Of a DNA stretch of 43,613 bases, positions 5,033 through 33,857 are shown piece after piece; within the stretch, counting starts at the first letter, position 1, and the number at the start of each line of letters is the position of its first letter. The position numbers and the translations under genes were made by a program. The notes beneath the pieces were generated by a model that saw only the letters and a list, made by a program, of their open reading frames with translations, made no database searches and was not told the DNA's origin. This DNA is from a virus (Duplodnaviria > Heunggongvirae > Uroviricota > Caudoviricetes): positions 1 through 43,613 of the IMG/VR virus record IMGVR_UViG_2654587728_000013, one strand, 5' to 3'.

Positions 5033-5188
5033 ATTACCATTTTGGTAATACCTGGAGATGCAGGAAAACCACGAAGTGGTGGTTTCTGCCTGAGCGATGC
5101 GCTCATGTATTACCTTTTGGGTAATAATCAGATCAAAAAGTGATTGTGTCAATAGGTATGACGAGAAAAAAATTACCGTTTTGGTAAT
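5033..5188. promoter_or_regulatory. OL-like operator triplet: ATTACC-N5-GGTAAT at 5033..5049, 5109..5125, 5172..5188
   Basis: Three perfect 17-bp palindromes spaced 76 and 63 bp; minus-strand TTGACA (5147-5152) 17 bp from GATTAT overlapping site 2. Confidence 0.6.
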
Positions 5189-5245: not shown

Positions 5246-5842
5246 TTACTTGCTTTTGTTCTGCTCAAACACGAAGTTAATGAATGAGGTGATCTTGTTT
5301 TTCTCTTCCTGAGGCAGAGCTGCATACAACCTGTGGTCGTAGTCGATAACACCAGGAGCGCCGACGGGAATAATCATCTCGTATGCTTCATGCCCGAACG
5401 CGCGCGCCAGGGAGGAAAGAACGCCGATAGTTGTGCTGACTTCCGCTTTCATAATCCGGTTAACTGTGGCCGGGCCAATACCAGCTGCTACAGCAACTTT
5501 CTTTTCTGATGTCATTTCCGTGTTCTTTCTCATCCAGGCATTGAGCGTGGCTGCAGCCTGCTTCTCTACAGTCCATTCGCCATCATCAGTGGCCGGAATA
5601 AAGATATCAGCCTGTACCGCGTCCAGTTCGTGATCGACATCAAGCCAGAACTTTTCTTTGCGCGCTGCTTCCTCAATGATACGCGCTGCATTTGGTCCGA
5701 TGTTTTTGATGCCAGTGCACCACCTGTTGACCAGGTTCTGCGAACGCTTCACACGTTCGGCAAAGCGCAACTGGGTATCATCGAAATCCCGGCGAATGAT
5801 TTCGTTAAGGTTTTTGCGTCTTATGTCATAAATACTTTTCAT
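5246..5842 (-). CDS. prophage repressor, tandem XRE-type HTH, no LexA-like peptidase domain
   Basis: 198 aa; two HTH-like segments (QLRFAERVKRSQNLVNRW... and EKKVAVAAGIGPATVNRIMKAE...); flanked by operator triplets; divergent from Cro-like gene. Confidence 0.6.
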   Translation of the reverse strand: MKSIYDIRRKNLNEIIRRDFDDTQLRFAERVKRSQNLVNRWCTGIKNIGPNAARIIEEAARKEKFWLDVDHELDAVQADIFIPATDDGEWTVEKQAAATLNAWMRKNTEMTSEKKVAVAAGIGPATVNRIMKAEVSTTIGVLSSLARAFGHEAYEMIIPVGAPGVIDYDHRLYAALPQEEKNKITSFINFVFEQNKSK

Positions 5843-5895: not shown

Positions 5896-5959
5896 ATTAC
5901 CATAAAGGTAAAGTTACCATAACGGTAATAATCATTGATTTTTTCACCAGAAAGGTAAT
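5896..5959. promoter_or_regulatory. OR-like operator triplet: 5896..5912, 5913..5929 (TTACC-N5-GGTAA) and 5943..5959 (TCACC variant)
   Basis: Divergent intergenic region between repressor and Cro-like gene; plus-strand TTGATT (5935-5940) then TAATAA/ATAATT about 17 bp downstream overlapping third site. Confidence 0.6.
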
Positions 5960-8232: not shown

Positions 8233-8249
8233 ATTACCAAAAGGGTAAT
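8233..8249. promoter_or_regulatory. operator copy ATTACC-AAAAG-GGTAAT
   Basis: Perfect TTACC-N5-GGTAA in intergenic region upstream of resolvase gene. Confidence 0.5.
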
Positions 8250-8294
8250 AAAATATGCGCATTGCTATTGAAATTAACCCATTTGTGGTTTTAA

Positions 8295-8311
8295 ATTACC
8301 TGAGAGGTAAA
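8295..8311. promoter_or_regulatory. operator copy ATTACC-TGAGA-GGTAAA overlapping RBS of resolvase gene
   Basis: Perfect TTACC-N5-GGTAA ending 3 bp before ATG at 8314. Confidence 0.5.
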
Positions 8312-10314: not shown

Positions 10315-10653
10315 ATGGCTAAATCCGCAGCAGAGCGCAAAGCAGCGCAGCGTGCCCGCCAGGCTGAATCTGGTAACCGCAAGCTGGAATTGCAACTAGA
10401 CGAGCAGGAACTGGAGATGCTGGCGAGAAACTGCGCCGCCCGTCGCCCTGGTCGGGCGCCGTATGACATGAACGAGTACATCGCGTTGCTTATACGCCAG
10501 GATGATGCGCGGGTTCGTGGGCGCATCAAGTCAATCAGCTCTAACCGTTGCGGGAAATGTGGCGATGCGCTGCCAGTTGAGTCGTGTCCGTGTGATGGTG
10601 ATTCGGCATGCTGGGTGACGCGTGGCTGGCATGATACTAAACTAGCGGTGTGA
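10315..10653 (+). CDS. hypothetical Cys-rich protein
   Basis: ORF 10267..10653 trimmed to MAKSAAERKAAQ; C-terminal CGKCGD...CPCDGDSAC cluster; last gene before terminase. Confidence 0.45.
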   Translation: MAKSAAERKAAQRARQAESGNRKLELQLDEQELEMLARNCAARRPGRAPYDMNEYIALLIRQDDARVRGRIKSISSNRCGKCGDALPVESCPCDGDSACWVTRGWHDTKLAV

Positions 10654-10661
10654 CATGTCAC
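10650..10661. repeat. 12-bp palindrome GTGACATGTCAC (copy 1 of 3) overlapping stop codon
   Basis: Exact palindrome; same sequence at 13166..13177 and 31721..31732, each next to a GC hairpin. Confidence 0.6.
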
Positions 10662-10720: not shown

Positions 10721-10737
10721 ATTACCAAAACGGTAAT
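10721..10737. promoter_or_regulatory. operator copy ATTACC-AAAAC-GGTAAT upstream of terminase genes
   Basis: Perfect TTACC-N5-GGTAA between terminator and small terminase start. Confidence 0.5.
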
Positions 10738-10756
10738 TATTACTTCGGTGGTAACA

Positions 10757-13165: not shown

Positions 13166-13177
13166 GTGACATGTCAC
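13166..13177. repeat. 12-bp palindrome GTGACATGTCAC (copy 2 of 3)
   Basis: Exact copy; lies between stop of 13182..13613 and its terminator hairpin. Confidence 0.6.
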
Positions 13178-31047: not shown

Positions 31048-31419
31048 ATGAACAGAATTATATTAATGACTCTTCTTATTTTTTTTGTTGGAAAAGCTTC
31101 TGCTGATACTACATCACCTTTAATGATTCAGCCTAAAAATGGAGAAACATTGGAGGATTCTAAAAAGCATACAATGGAATACTTTGGATGCATAAAAGGG
31201 CAGGCTGTAAAGTATGCCAAGACAGGAGAAAGTGTTGATTCCATATCAAAAGCTTCGGTTGTGTCATGCGAGTCATATATACCAATGATCGCCGAGTCGA
31301 ATATATATTATTTAAACTCTTCGCAAGATGGTAAGCGGCAATTTACAGAAAGGCTAAAATCTGATGGTGAGAGATTAGCCACAAAATTTGCCATGGATGA
31401 GAAGATTAAAAATAAATAG
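31048..31419 (+). CDS. small secreted protein (AT-rich moron)
   Basis: 123 aa; signal peptide MNRIILMTLLIFFVGKASA; visibly low GC (estimated ~35%, not computed). Confidence 0.55.
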   Translation: MNRIILMTLLIFFVGKASADTTSPLMIQPKNGETLEDSKKHTMEYFGCIKGQAVKYAKTGESVDSISKASVVSCESYIPMIAESNIYYLNSSQDGKRQFTERLKSDGERLATKFAMDEKIKNK

Positions 31420-31427
31420 GTGACCAC

Positions 31428-31724
31428 ATGCAAGCTATTGGTTTCATTGTTTACATAGTTGTTGGTCTTTTTCAGTTGGCTGCGATCATGGCTGGTCTTG
31501 AATCGTGGTGGGGACTGCACTGGATAGTGGCTGCACCCATTGCTTTCATCGTTAGTTATATCCCGTTGGTCGGTTCCATTGTTGGAATGGTTGGCGCTGT
31601 CGACGTATGGCGTTGGGAATGGTGGCAGGCAGGGCTTCTTTTCTTTGGCGGCCTGGTTTTTGCTATTGCGTGCGGGGGGATGTCTTCGTTCTTCGAATGG
31701 CTATCCTTCAGGAAAAGAGCGTGA
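31428..31724 (+). CDS. small three-TM membrane protein
   Basis: 98 aa; three hydrophobic helices; RBS AGGTGA; stop overlaps GTGACATGTCAC palindrome. Confidence 0.55.
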   Translation: MQAIGFIVYIVVGLFQLAAIMAGLESWWGLHWIVAAPIAFIVSYIPLVGSIVGMVGAVDVWRWEWWQAGLLFFGGLVFAIACGGMSSFFEWLSFRKRA

Positions 31725-31732
31725 CATGTCAC
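31721..31732. repeat. 12-bp palindrome GTGACATGTCAC (copy 3 of 3)
   Basis: Exact copy overlapping stop of 31428..31724; GC hairpin 25 bp downstream. Confidence 0.6.
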
Positions 31733-31771: not shown

Positions 31772-32236
31772 TTACTCTTCTTCATCGCTACCAAAGAGCG
31801 GGTTATCGTTGTAGTCAGAGAGAAGAAACGGTATGTGCTCCCTCGAATACCCAACCACAACTATTTCATCTCCGTCTTTCGCATAGTGAATGCATTCATT
31901 TGAATGCTTCCCACCAGGGTTGAATTTTAAGTCAACAGTATGATTTCTGAAGGTGTTAGGATACCACGTGGGACCACAATGATAGTGCCAGTAATTTTCC
32001 TGCTCATAATTGTCTGAACCGGGAATTTTATCATAGTTGTCGTCAACCCAAGATGGCTTGTTTTTACCTACAAGCGTTCTGCCATTGGCAACATCTTCCA
32101 TAAAATTTTGGATGGTTTCCAACTCCAGGTCCGTGAGATGTGGTCCATCTACTGCGAAAGGTTCGTTACTGGCACCGGTTATAAAGCCAAATGCAACCCT
32201 AGGCTTAAACTTCAAGTTACACCCCTGACAGGTCAA
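31772..32236 (-). CDS. hypothetical protein with acidic C-terminal tail
   Basis: 154 aa; only start-like codon at 5' end is TTG immediately after in-frame TAA of upstream small ORF; start uncertain. Confidence 0.4.
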   Translation of the reverse strand: MTCQGCNLKFKPRVAFGFITGASNEPFAVDGPHLTDLELETIQNFMEDVANGRTLVGKNKPSWVDDNYDKIPGSDNYEQENYWHYHCGPTWYPNTFRNHTVDLKFNPGGKHSNECIHYAKDGDEIVVVGYSREHIPFLLSDYNDNPLFGSDEEE

Positions 32237-32404
32237 TTATTTTGCGCGAAATGCCGCCTTGAAGTCGTTGAAAGAAGTCCCTGACTGATAAGTCATGTCC
32301 TGGTCGCGATCTTTGTTAGCGCGACCAAGCATTACTTTACCAATGGCATCCCAGCATTGCTTGGCTTGCTCATTTTGTTGAGTCCGATTTTTCAACGCTG
32401 TCAT
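32237..32404 (-). CDS. small ORF (55 aa) in same frame as downstream 154-aa ORF
   Basis: Found by manual translation (below ORF-track size cut-off); strong RBS AGGAGA; ends at TAA followed in frame by TTG of next ORF. Confidence 0.35.
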   Translation of the reverse strand: MTALKNRTQQNEQAKQCWDAIGKVMLGRANKDRDQDMTYQSGTSFNDFKAAFRAK

Positions 32405-32499: not shown

Positions 32500-33198
32500 T
32501 CAGAACTTACCAGTCATGCTGTTGATGTACTGCGCATGAGTCTGGATATCGCGCAGGCATTTACTGGCGCCGACAATGTAGCTCATCATGGCCGCGAACT
32601 CTGCTACAGCACCTTCAACATCATGCCCGTCTGCGTCCAGTTGGCGTAGCAGGCTCATCATCAAAGAGTGCTCTGTCAGACCAAGAACACCTTCAGGTGA
32701 ATGGATGTGTTCACGGTAGTTTGGCTTGAGTGGGGCGCTGTATTCCTGTTTCTCTTCCGTCTTCATCGCTTCCAGAATGGCGGGCATGAAGCTGGCTACA
32801 ACCTTTTGCGCTTTGTCTGCCGGTGATAATTCTTCACGAACGTATCGACCAGTGCGGCGGATTTGCGGAAGAACGTCGCCAGTTACCCATTTGCGGAAAC
32901 GATAGGGGATAGTACCAGGAGTTACCGCATCGCGGCAGCGCAGGATCAGAGTGTAGAGGCCGGATTCAGAGATGATGAGGGTATTAGGGTTCCCTCGTTT
33001 TCCGTCGGTTAAAGCGACGGTATTCTTTTCGTCGTCATCCAATTTAAGCAGAGCATCACGGTTGTTTGATATACCAAGAGCATTACATACATCTAACGCA
33101 ATAAACCATGGCTCGCCGTCGATGATGATTGCACGAATATCGGCTTGCGATTCGAAAGAAAAAACTGAAGTATTTTTTTGAGTTGTCATAGTGATCAC
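32500..33198 (-). CDS. Bro-N domain antirepressor
   Basis: 232 aa; N-terminal FSFESQADIRAIIIDGEPWFIALDVCNALGI matches Bro-N; distinct C-terminal domain. Confidence 0.7.
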   Translation of the reverse strand: MITMTTQKNTSVFSFESQADIRAIIIDGEPWFIALDVCNALGISNNRDALLKLDDDEKNTVALTDGKRGNPNTLIISESGLYTLILRCRDAVTPGTIPYRFRKWVTGDVLPQIRRTGRYVREELSPADKAQKVVASFMPAILEAMKTEEKQEYSAPLKPNYREHIHSPEGVLGLTEHSLMMSLLRQLDADGHDVEGAVAEFAAMMSYIVGASKCLRDIQTHAQYINSMTGKF

Positions 33199-33457
33199 CT
33201 TTTAGTCTGGTTAATCACCACCGGAGGTTCCAATCTCGGAGGTGGTGAACTGTGCAGGGTTGGAACTACCGGCTAAAAGGACCCGGCGCACCTTTCGGTG
33301 CCCCCACACAGCCCACCATAATGCGAATGTGGCCGTGCTTAACGCATAAAAAAACCGCTTGCGCGGTGAATGCGCCTTTTAGTATCCGGGGTTCCAATCC
33401 CGGCACTGGATTTTGCCAGTGCCTGATCACTATGGCACAAGTATTTTGCGTTGTAAA

Positions 33458-33474
33458 TTTACCGTAAAGGTAAT
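33458..33474. promoter_or_regulatory. operator copy TTTACC-GTAAA-GGTAAT in antirepressor promoter region
   Basis: Perfect TTACC-N5-GGTAA. Confidence 0.5.
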
Positions 33475-33504: not shown

Positions 33505-33765
33505 TTATGTGGTTTGCTTGCGTAACTGTTCCGCACAGTAATCGAGATGCGTTTGCAGATCCTGCATGGTCATTTGAGAGCTTGTTACGTAATTCACAAG
33601 GGCAACCAATTCAGCCAGCGGCCCGTCAACGTTGAAGCCGTCTTTATCGAGTTCCCGCAGCAACTTCATCAGATGCGAGTCCTCCACCAGGGATCTAACG
33701 CCTACCGGCGTGTGTATTCTTTCCTCAAATCCTTCTTCCAGCGGATGGTGATACTGCCGTTGCAT
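33505..33765 (-). CDS. stand-alone paralog of the antirepressor C-terminal domain
   Basis: Aligns by eye to C-terminus of 32500..33198 (HLMKLLRELDKDGFNVDGPLAEL vs SLMMSLLRQLDADGHDVEGAVAEF); start at MQRQYHH with GGAG RBS. Confidence 0.5.
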   Translation of the reverse strand: MQRQYHHPLEEGFEERIHTPVGVRSLVEDSHLMKLLRELDKDGFNVDGPLAELVALVNYVTSSQMTMQDLQTHLDYCAEQLRKQTT

Positions 33766-33840
33766 CTCTTCTTCTCCATGCAATCACTGTATAAACATAC
33801 AGTAGCAGAAGATTTACTGACTATCCAGCACGAAATGTAA

Positions 33841-33857
33841 ATTACCTGTAAGGTAAT
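33841..33857. promoter_or_regulatory. operator copy ATTACC-TGTAA-GGTAAT between antirepressor paralog and tailspike
   Basis: Perfect TTACC-N5-GGTAA in divergent intergenic region. Confidence 0.5.

Follow-up and report, generated by a model that had tools for sequence, protein, structure and literature searches.

The window analysed here, positions 1 to 43,613 of IMG/VR record IMGVR_UViG_2654587728_000013 (43,613 nucleotides, nt), is an epsilon15-like (Uetakevirus-type) prophage; over 63% of a structural segment of 22 kb it is 92.8% identical to Salmonella virus PAT1. Between positions 32404 and 31772, entirely on the minus strand according to the open reading frame (ORF) list of the window, it carries a pair of genes which we call A and B. 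Judged by comparison of homologous loci, A and B are practically certain to be two separate genes, and with slightly better than even confidence we read them as a type II toxin-antitoxin (TA)-like module wired into the phage repressor regulon. The first-pass annotation had described a 55-amino-acid (aa) ORF with a strong ribosome-binding site, ending in TAA and followed in the same frame by a TTG that opens a 154-aa ORF, and had offered two explanations, a gene of some 210 codons interrupted by a nonsense mutation or a tightly coupled small-protein/effector pair of TA-like character. The latter is favoured by the conserved pairing across hosts and elements, the predicted fold of B and the helical, non-globular nature of A. 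The same-frame ORF pair itself is a coincidence of ORF calling and of no interest, while beneath it lies a conserved two-gene cassette that is outside all curated libraries.

The geometry of the locus was confirmed on the minus strand. Gene A (32404-32237), the putative antitoxin or neutralising partner, starts with ATG at 32404, encodes 55 aa with a basic isoelectric point (pI) of 9.65, and stops with TAA at 32239-32237. Its Shine-Dalgarno (SD) sequence AAGGAG (32417-32412, minus strand) is spaced 7 nt from the ATG and is kept in relatives. The following codon, 32236-32234, is a TTG in the frame of A, and opens a mechanical ORF of 154 aa ending with ...GSDEEE-TAA at 31772, so that the acidic DEEE tail had also been correctly described. 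This 154-aa ORF is a by-product, since the first ATG, GTG or TTG after a stop was taken. No SD sequence stands ahead of this first TTG. We place the start of gene B (32215-31772, minus strand) at a second TTG, 32215-32213, seven codons beyond the first and 21 nt past the TAA, which gives a product of 147 aa (LKFK...). The profile of phrog_5954 (143 positions) begins at residue 9 of the 154-aa ORF, B homologs in databases are 141-149 aa long and all have M-K-[FI] as their N-termini, and the gene callers used for eight other assemblies begin B at the second TTG, with 147 aa. The intergenic spacer of 21 nt (32236-32216, minus strand) contains the incidental in-frame TTG and an SD-like AGGGG (32226-32222), which serves the TTG of B at a spacing of 6 nt. 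At this site E. coli relatives have AGGAG, Enterobacter and Raoultella have AGAGG, and the purine run is kept 6-7 nt upstream of the TTG of B in relatives. The remark that the downstream ORF has no ribosome-binding site of its own was thus right for the TTG at 32236 and wrong for the real start at 32215. The start codons differ between the two genes, being TTG or GTG for B, and ATG with a strong SD sequence for A.

The comparison of homologs comprised 22 sequence-distinct homologous loci, and no continuous A-B ORF was found among them. The Prokaryotic Genome Annotation Pipeline and other annotation pipelines call two genes at homologous loci, and the two proteins match separate PHROG families, A over positions 1-55 of the 55 in phrog_8607 (E 2e-35) and B in phrog_5954. 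Relative frames 0, 1 and 2 of A and B were all present in the 22 loci, where the genes either stand 0-31 nt apart or overlap by 4 or 35 nt, and the shared frame in the window is therefore a matter of chance. In Escherichia phage phiv142-3 and E. coli XJ55, A stops with TAG and is followed by a 20-nt spacer and by B in another frame, and in a Vibrio filamentous phage the stop of A and the start of B abut as TAA-ATG. The gap measures 31 nt in Erwinia and 1-9 nt in Pasteurellaceae; the genes overlap by 35 nt in Aeromonas and by 4 nt in a metagenomic relative. Because relatives of about 85% identity with the same 21-nt gap carry AAT or TTA as the codon after the TAA, and the Serratia gap holds an in-frame TAA, the in-frame TTG of the window is a one-off. 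Seen as seven 'linker' codons, the spacer had no conservation as coding sequence among relatives. One representative at 50% identity reached 201 aa, but its extra length is C-terminal and a separate upstream A-like gene is present. Entries of 193-195 aa have the same length as a long out-of-frame ORF that overlaps gene A in L001, the phiv142-3 locus.

One ancestral gene of some 210 codons that a nonsense mutation has interrupted, whether a pseudogene or a recent fission, would account for the local geometry alone, i.e., a TAA followed by an in-frame open frame of 154 codons. It is refuted by the two families, by the variation in frames, overlaps and gaps, by linker codons that are unconserved and hold a stop in Serratia, and by homologs that are consistently two genes with independent starts; the probability we leave to it is negligible. 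A sequencing error at the TAA was considered and rejected, since the 40-nt junction was base-for-base identical in eight independent assemblies, whose B is 99% identical to that of the window; the same identity speaks against a split. Programmed readthrough, or termination and reinitiation at TTG 32236, giving a functional A-B fusion or a 154-aa isoform of B, would make use of the stop and the start-capable codon being adjacent in the window, and the abutting TAA-ATG of the Vibrio phage indicates that reinitiation without a spacer occurs in the family. However, the first TTG is absent from close relatives and the frames differ in other relatives, and the conserved family N-terminus M-K-[FI] falls at the second TTG. 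The stop in the window stands in the context TAA-T, the most efficient termination signal in E. coli. Functional readthrough across the TAA appears very unlikely, and we give the whole explanation, reinitiation included, hardly more credit than the split gene.

At every B-homolog locus examined there was a tightly coupled gene upstream, whose product aligns with A over its C-terminal ~45 residues and shares a motif of the approximate form [EY]K..a D..hL.R ... S[FM].[DE]F[KR].A. Identity to A of the window was 32-40% in Haemophilus, Necropsobacter and Actinobacillus seminis (L007, L011, L014, L016). It was no more than 11-20% in the other distant loci, whose alignment depends on the motif alone. 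In enterics and in the Vibrio phage A is 50-57 aa long and consists of the motif alone, and it has about 75 aa in Erwinia. In Pasteurellaceae and one metagenomic relative (L005-L016, L018, L040) the A domain forms the C-terminus of a protein of 160-214 aa, which begins with a short hydrophobic, signal-peptide-like N-terminus (maximum 15-aa Kyte-Doolittle score 1.5-2.1); these long A-type proteins had no Pfam match. The identical A protein was found on 116 contigs. Megablast of the region against phage records returned nothing, and the relatives were found by tblastn. The cassette is absent from PAT1 and most other Uetakeviruses, and is therefore regarded as an accessory moron. In epsilon15-like prophages it has varying flanks, being placed behind a Bro-N antirepressor, an Arc/Mnt region or AlpA. 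It was also found at the end of a lambdoid-type prophage, between DinI and tail-fibre genes, and in a Vibrio inovirus. In a prophage of Pasteurellaceae bacterium LFhippo2 (L030 1-6363) the pair immediately follows the gene for a polyvalent protein longer than 2900 aa, in which MuF_C, ART-PolyVal and LPD domains are present. On the Aeromonas salmonicida plasmid pAsa5 (CP000646.1; L031-L034), an A of 71 aa and a B of 154 aa, with the 35-nt overlap, belong to an island with an NYN-domain gene, two AbiTii genes, a ParE-type toxin pair and insertion sequence elements. The organisation is that of type II TA loci, with a coupled bicistron, the small partner upstream, carriage on mobile elements and a terminator right after B.

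Searches with the sequence of B were mostly negative. No Pfam or NCBIfam match was obtained at E <= 1, nor a Pfam match for ten distant relatives of B. Neither B nor A matched the defence models of PADLOC-DB at E <= 1, a search of the Protein Data Bank (PDB) with the B profile gave only noise, and an exhaustive profile search found only 121 representatives at 50% identity. The AlphaFold2 model of B, built with 27 homologs, had a predicted local distance difference test (pLDDT) score of 89.9 and a predicted template-modelling (pTM) score of 0.85. Its elements follow in the order beta1-alpha1-alpha2-beta2-beta3-beta4 with two insertions, and it has a predicted RelE-type alpha/beta fold. Families of the RelE/ParE type ranked first when the model was submitted to Foldseek, and the comparison with viral structures gave nothing significant. 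The invariant motifs of the family are GKNKPSW, WHYHCG, S-x4-HY and S-x2-H-x-P, with the invariant residues G50-K-N-K53, S55, D59, W76-H-Y-H-C-G81, S105, H110-Y111, S124 and H127. Of these, H77 and H79 are on strand 75-79 (beta2), H110 on strand 108-114 (beta3), and S124 and H127 at or after 117-124 (post-beta4). Their correspondence to K52/K54, R61 and R81 of RelE is by secondary-structure register only, and on this register an RNase centre built on His, as in YafQ, HigB and YoeB, is plausible. Our reading of the model is that B is a RelE/ParE-fold toxin-like protein of a new sequence family. B of the window has a pI of 4.8 and a net charge of -13, much of it located in the N-terminal 44 residues and the C-terminal tail. 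All 27 close members had a pI below 7 (median 5.0); the median pI of A is a basic 9.5.

Protein A had no Pfam, NCBIfam or PADLOC match. Modelled alone with AlphaFold2 it formed a helix of residues 2-34 and another of residues 45-54 (pLDDT 64, pTM 0.28), with no globular or recognisable DNA-binding fold, and in this we read the behaviour of those toxin-binding antitoxin segments that fold on their partner. The DNA-binding domain and autoregulation of antitoxins were not recovered for A, which had no domain match and whose gene is preceded by an operator of the repressor family.

The operon has a putative promoter at 32463-32434 (minus strand), with -35 TTGGCG (32463-32458), an 18-nt spacer and -10 TAATAT (32439-32434). 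Its hexamers match the consensus at 8 of 12 positions and are weak; the consensus scan requires 9 of 12, and the promoter was for this reason absent from its list. Relatives have TTGCAG-17-TACTAT or TTGACG-17-CAAAAT at the same site. Between the -10-like TAATAT and the SD sequence of A lies the palindrome TTACCTCAAAGGTAA (32434-32420) with the core TTACC-N5-GGTAA, which overlaps the -10/+1 region. When at most two mismatches are allowed, the window contains 19 matches to the pattern, where 1.0 +/- 1.1 would be expected and no shuffle gave more than 5; the exact core is present in 12 copies, usually followed by TA. Copies and clusters were located by pattern search at 5034-5187, 5897-5958, 8234-8310, 10722-10754, 14252, 32420, 33459 and 33842. 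On either side of a 198-aa HTH_3 repressor-like gene (5246-5842, minus strand) there is a cluster of three copies, an arrangement which we read as that of an immunity region. One or two copies are found ahead of a RuvC-like gene, of the small-terminase gene and of every accessory unit in the antirepressor (ant) region, namely a 92-aa gene (33842), the isrK/C4/ant unit (33459) and A-B (32420). PAT1, whose repressor is 99% identical, carries ten exact copies in equivalent places against 0.02 expected; since PAT1 has no A-B, the operator belongs to the phage repressor regulon and not to A. As our primary reading, a private autoregulatory operator of A was rejected on this account. The earlier statement that the locus is under operator control stands insofar as the palindrome is real and control is supported; the site is, however, one of a genome-wide family and not a private one. 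Repression of the A-B promoter by the prophage repressor is inferred from the position of the operator. More generally, one operator sequence serves the immunity region, the early and late promoters and the accessory genes of Uetakevirus-type prophages. The site goes with the cassette at all enteric loci, and in another prophage type which carries the cassette it is the sole copy in 17 kb. Downstream, the terminator scan gave an intrinsic terminator, AAGCCCGCGACGCGGGCTT followed by TTTTGTGGGT (31773-31745, minus strand), with eight pairs, six of them GC, and a T-run; it overlaps the stop of B, and a terminator after B is conserved at all enteric loci.

A deletion affecting a B homolog has been published under another name. 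In prophage phiv142-3 of avian pathogenic E. coli, survival in serum fell to about 60% on deletion of 'orf10', transcripts of the K1 capsule dropped about 2-fold, and blood and heart loads in chickens were reduced to 7-8% of the wild type, with normal growth in LB (PMC7724020). In serum orf10 was induced 2^4.12-fold (about 17-fold), together with the early genes orf40 and orf41 (PMC7724020). The published recombineering arms map the deletion to L001 3143-3301 (MN187550.1 6498-6656), which corresponds to residues 44-97 of the B homolog, including GKNKPSW and WHYHCG. This homolog has 146 aa and is 74% identical to B of the window; the annotated 52-aa Orf10 (QGF19616.1) is a +1 out-of-frame ORF nested in it, and the real gene is unannotated in the record. 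Loss of B is thus tolerated in the lysogen, which fits a toxin and not an antitoxin, and its induction alongside early genes agrees with repressor control. The virulence phenotypes, which are modest, may be indirect.

The proposed mechanism combines these observations. The bicistronic accessory cassette, a putative moron in the antirepressor/tail region of the prophage, would be transcribed from the weak sigma-70-type promoter, whose -10/+1 region is overlapped by the repressor operator, with transcription ending at the terminator right after B. A would be translated from its strong SD sequence and ATG. As B starts 21 nt further on at a weak TTG with an SD sequence of its own, the two genes are translationally coupled, and B is probably made in smaller amounts. 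B may cleave mRNA, probably in a ribosome-dependent manner, as a His-based endonuclease of the RelE/YafQ/HigB/YafO kind, and A may neutralise it by folding onto it, in the manner of RelB-C, Phd-C and PaaA2. Given that A has no DNA-binding domain, transcription would be left to the phage repressor, a condition which can be likened to paaA2-parE2 embedded in a lambdoid regulatory circuit. The difference in start signals would fit a low toxin-to-antitoxin ratio, and the phiv142-3 data fit a dispensable toxin under repressor control. Toxicity of B, its RNase chemistry and the binding of A to B are all inferred.

Several observations weigh against a TA module. Under repression the operon would be silent in the lysogen, when a classical addiction or defence module should be on. 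With an acidic B and a basic A the pair inverts the charges of classical RelE/RelB, which is unusual for a protein that binds ribosomes or RNA; on the other hand the YafO family is also mostly acidic, and acidity is thus compatible with a toxin. B did not match the curated models of RelE, ParE, YafQ, HigB, YoeB, Gp49 and YhaV, and its hhalign comparison with YafO scored 20.4 against 13.8 +/- 2.9 for shuffled profiles, with 1 of 60 shuffles as good (empirical p ~0.02). The signal-peptide-like N-terminus of the long Pasteurellaceae A proteins, which measure 160-190 aa, is hard to reconcile with a cytoplasmic antitoxin. In addition, since the palindrome travels with the cassette, A or an A-B complex may also use it. 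Part of this evidence would suit a two-protein phage effector that serves neither addiction nor defence, in which B is used after derepression or infection, and A is a chaperone, timer or regulator. The repressor operator is present at the promoter as it is at ant and the region's other accessory genes, B is acidic, the pair in Pasteurellaceae directly follows a MuF/ART polyvalent protein, and the homologous region is serum-induced with early genes, its deletion lowering serum survival and kps transcripts (PMC7724020). The roles suggested for such an effector, with the same reserve, are shut-off of host mRNA, counter-defence, and an effect of lysogenic conversion on capsule and serum resistance. 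But the fold, gene order, tight coupling, weak start of B and the Abi/ParE neighbours on pAsa5 make up a classical TA signature, the published phenotypes are modest (about 2-fold), and the knockout was designed on a mis-annotated ORF, with a complementing fragment described only as 'coding sequence and putative promoter'. We consider the effector, the main rival of the TA reading, possible but rather unlikely. Even less probable, to the point where we would be surprised by it, is that B is a catalytically dead RelE-fold binder, for instance a decoy for a host factor or defence system or an inhibitor of one, in which His and Cys form a structural metal site. The net charge and acidic tail of B, the lack of a match to hidden Markov models (HMMs) of catalytic RelE-family members, and the invariant H77, H79, C80, H110 and H127 as potential metal ligands agree with such a binder. 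Yet in distant members C80 gives way to I, L, V, S or F, the Cys at 108 is unconserved, the invariant residues are placed by register on the canonical active-site strands, and the obligate pairing with a small partner would be left unexplained.

We therefore retain the repressor-governed TA-like module as the favoured reading. A further step, that A-B founds an unrecognised TA or defence family consisting of an acidic His-based RelE-fold nuclease and a small basic partner that folds on binding, switched in epsilon15-like phages by the prophage repressor instead of by autoregulation, is tentative, and we would sooner expect it to fail than to hold. If true, the family would be common to tailed prophages, filamentous phages and plasmids, the module would fire on derepression of the prophage or on infection by a related phage, and the serum-resistance and virulence phenotype published for 'orf10' in avian pathogenic E. 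coli (APEC) would in truth be due to B. With confirmation of the A-B reading, this APEC phenotype (PMC7724020) would pass to the 146-aa B homolog, and the 52-aa nested ORF would drop out as spurious. Confirmation would also add a new toxin family and a new partner family with unusual charge reversal to the type II repertoire, and give a second example after paaA2-parE2 of a prophage TA governed by the lysis-lysogeny circuit of the phage.

The neighbourhood of the cassette has features of its own. The Bro-N antirepressor gene (32500-33198) is downstream of isrK (33348-33435, minus strand; Rfam 76 bits, gathering score 50) and the C4 antisense RNA (33238-33323, minus strand; 77 bits, gathering score 45) with its a1/b1 target element. 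This isrK/C4/ant unit, with the repressor operator ahead of it at 33459, is, as far as the sequence tells, a P1/P7-type immI arrangement in an epsilon15-like prophage. The product of the 92-aa ORF (33505-33783, minus strand) resembles the C-terminal domain of the neighbouring antirepressor (...HLMKLLRELDKDGFNVDG... vs ...SLLRQLDADGHDVEG...); the ORF has its own operator-bearing promoter (33842-33856), divergent from a 909-aa tailspike-like gene. On the other side, two small genes (31048-31724, plus strand) converge with A-B and encode a 123-aa protein with a signal-peptide-like N-terminus and a hydrophobic 98-aa protein (phrog_3075). At the position of this convergent pair a gene in the related locus L028 has a Rap1a domain (type VI secretion system immunity), and the 123-aa and 98-aa genes are probably further morons. 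A perfect 12-bp palindrome, GTGACATGTCAC, was found at 10650-10661, 13166-13177 and 31721-31732, three copies against 0.17 expected. The copy at 31721 follows closely on the A-B terminator, and the stop codon of the convergent 98-aa ORF lies within it. This copy was kept after the cassette in eight other assemblies despite different downstream genes, and could be a cassette boundary or a protein-binding site.

Among known systems the RelE/ParE-superfamily toxins (RelE, YafQ, YoeB, HigB; PDB 1wmi_C, 2khe, 4q2u_B, 2a6q_E, 7nbu_Y) are the closest. As in these systems, the toxin-type gene of A-B is downstream of a small coupled partner and is carried by mobile elements. B differs in being about 55 aa longer, with insertions that include GKNKPSW and a long beta2-beta3 loop, in standing outside the sequence families, in its acidity, and in having conserved His where RelE has Lys or Arg. 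A, unlike the RelE/ParE partners, has no ribbon-helix-helix, helix-turn-helix or Phd-type DNA-binding domain.

YafO, a translation-dependent, RelE-related mRNA interferase (PMC2814082), was the initial hunch for the family of B and is kept as a lead only. YafO (PF13957; yafN-yafO) is similar to B in length (132-152 aa vs 141-154 aa) and mostly acidic or neutral in pI, and by eye both have the same order of motifs, F..YK..G / G[RK]D, h-H-h-H-h, TS[DN]..h.Y and hhh...H. Alignment of 74 B with 6 YafO sequences by hhalign covered 77 columns in that register with a probability of 4.4% (P 0.009), and alignment with a single YafO sequence reached 1.4%. The Pfam YafO model matched neither B nor its distant relatives, no structure of YafO was found, and no YafO was found in viral contigs. 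A is unrelated to YafN. On enterobacterial IncF plasmids (L035-L039) we observed YafO-family genes (136-152 aa) preceded by an abutting or overlapping gene for an unannotated hypothetical protein of ~175-205 aa; these upstream genes are not of the YafN type and are reminiscent of the long A proteins.

By analogy, the closest functional precedent for A-B is paaA2-parE2 of the cryptic prophage CP-933P. In that system, paaR2-paaA2-parE2, TA expression is governed by phage CI/Cro-type regulators (PMC8630535). Both combine a prophage-borne toxin of RelE/ParE fold (predicted, for B) with a small antitoxin and regulation of phage type instead of autoregulation through a DNA-binding domain of the antitoxin. 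In paaA2-parE2, however, the toxin belongs to the ParE family and the regulator gene is in the operon, whereas the A-B operon has no regulator, its operator is the genome-wide site of the resident repressor, and its proteins are of other families. With the immI locus of P1/P7 (C4, icd, ant) and the Gifsy-type isrK the cassette shares its place at the distal end of an ant locus with isrK and C4. Unlike immI, A-B has its own promoter and operator and is absent from related phages such as PAT1, and to our knowledge it is no part of the described immI operons.

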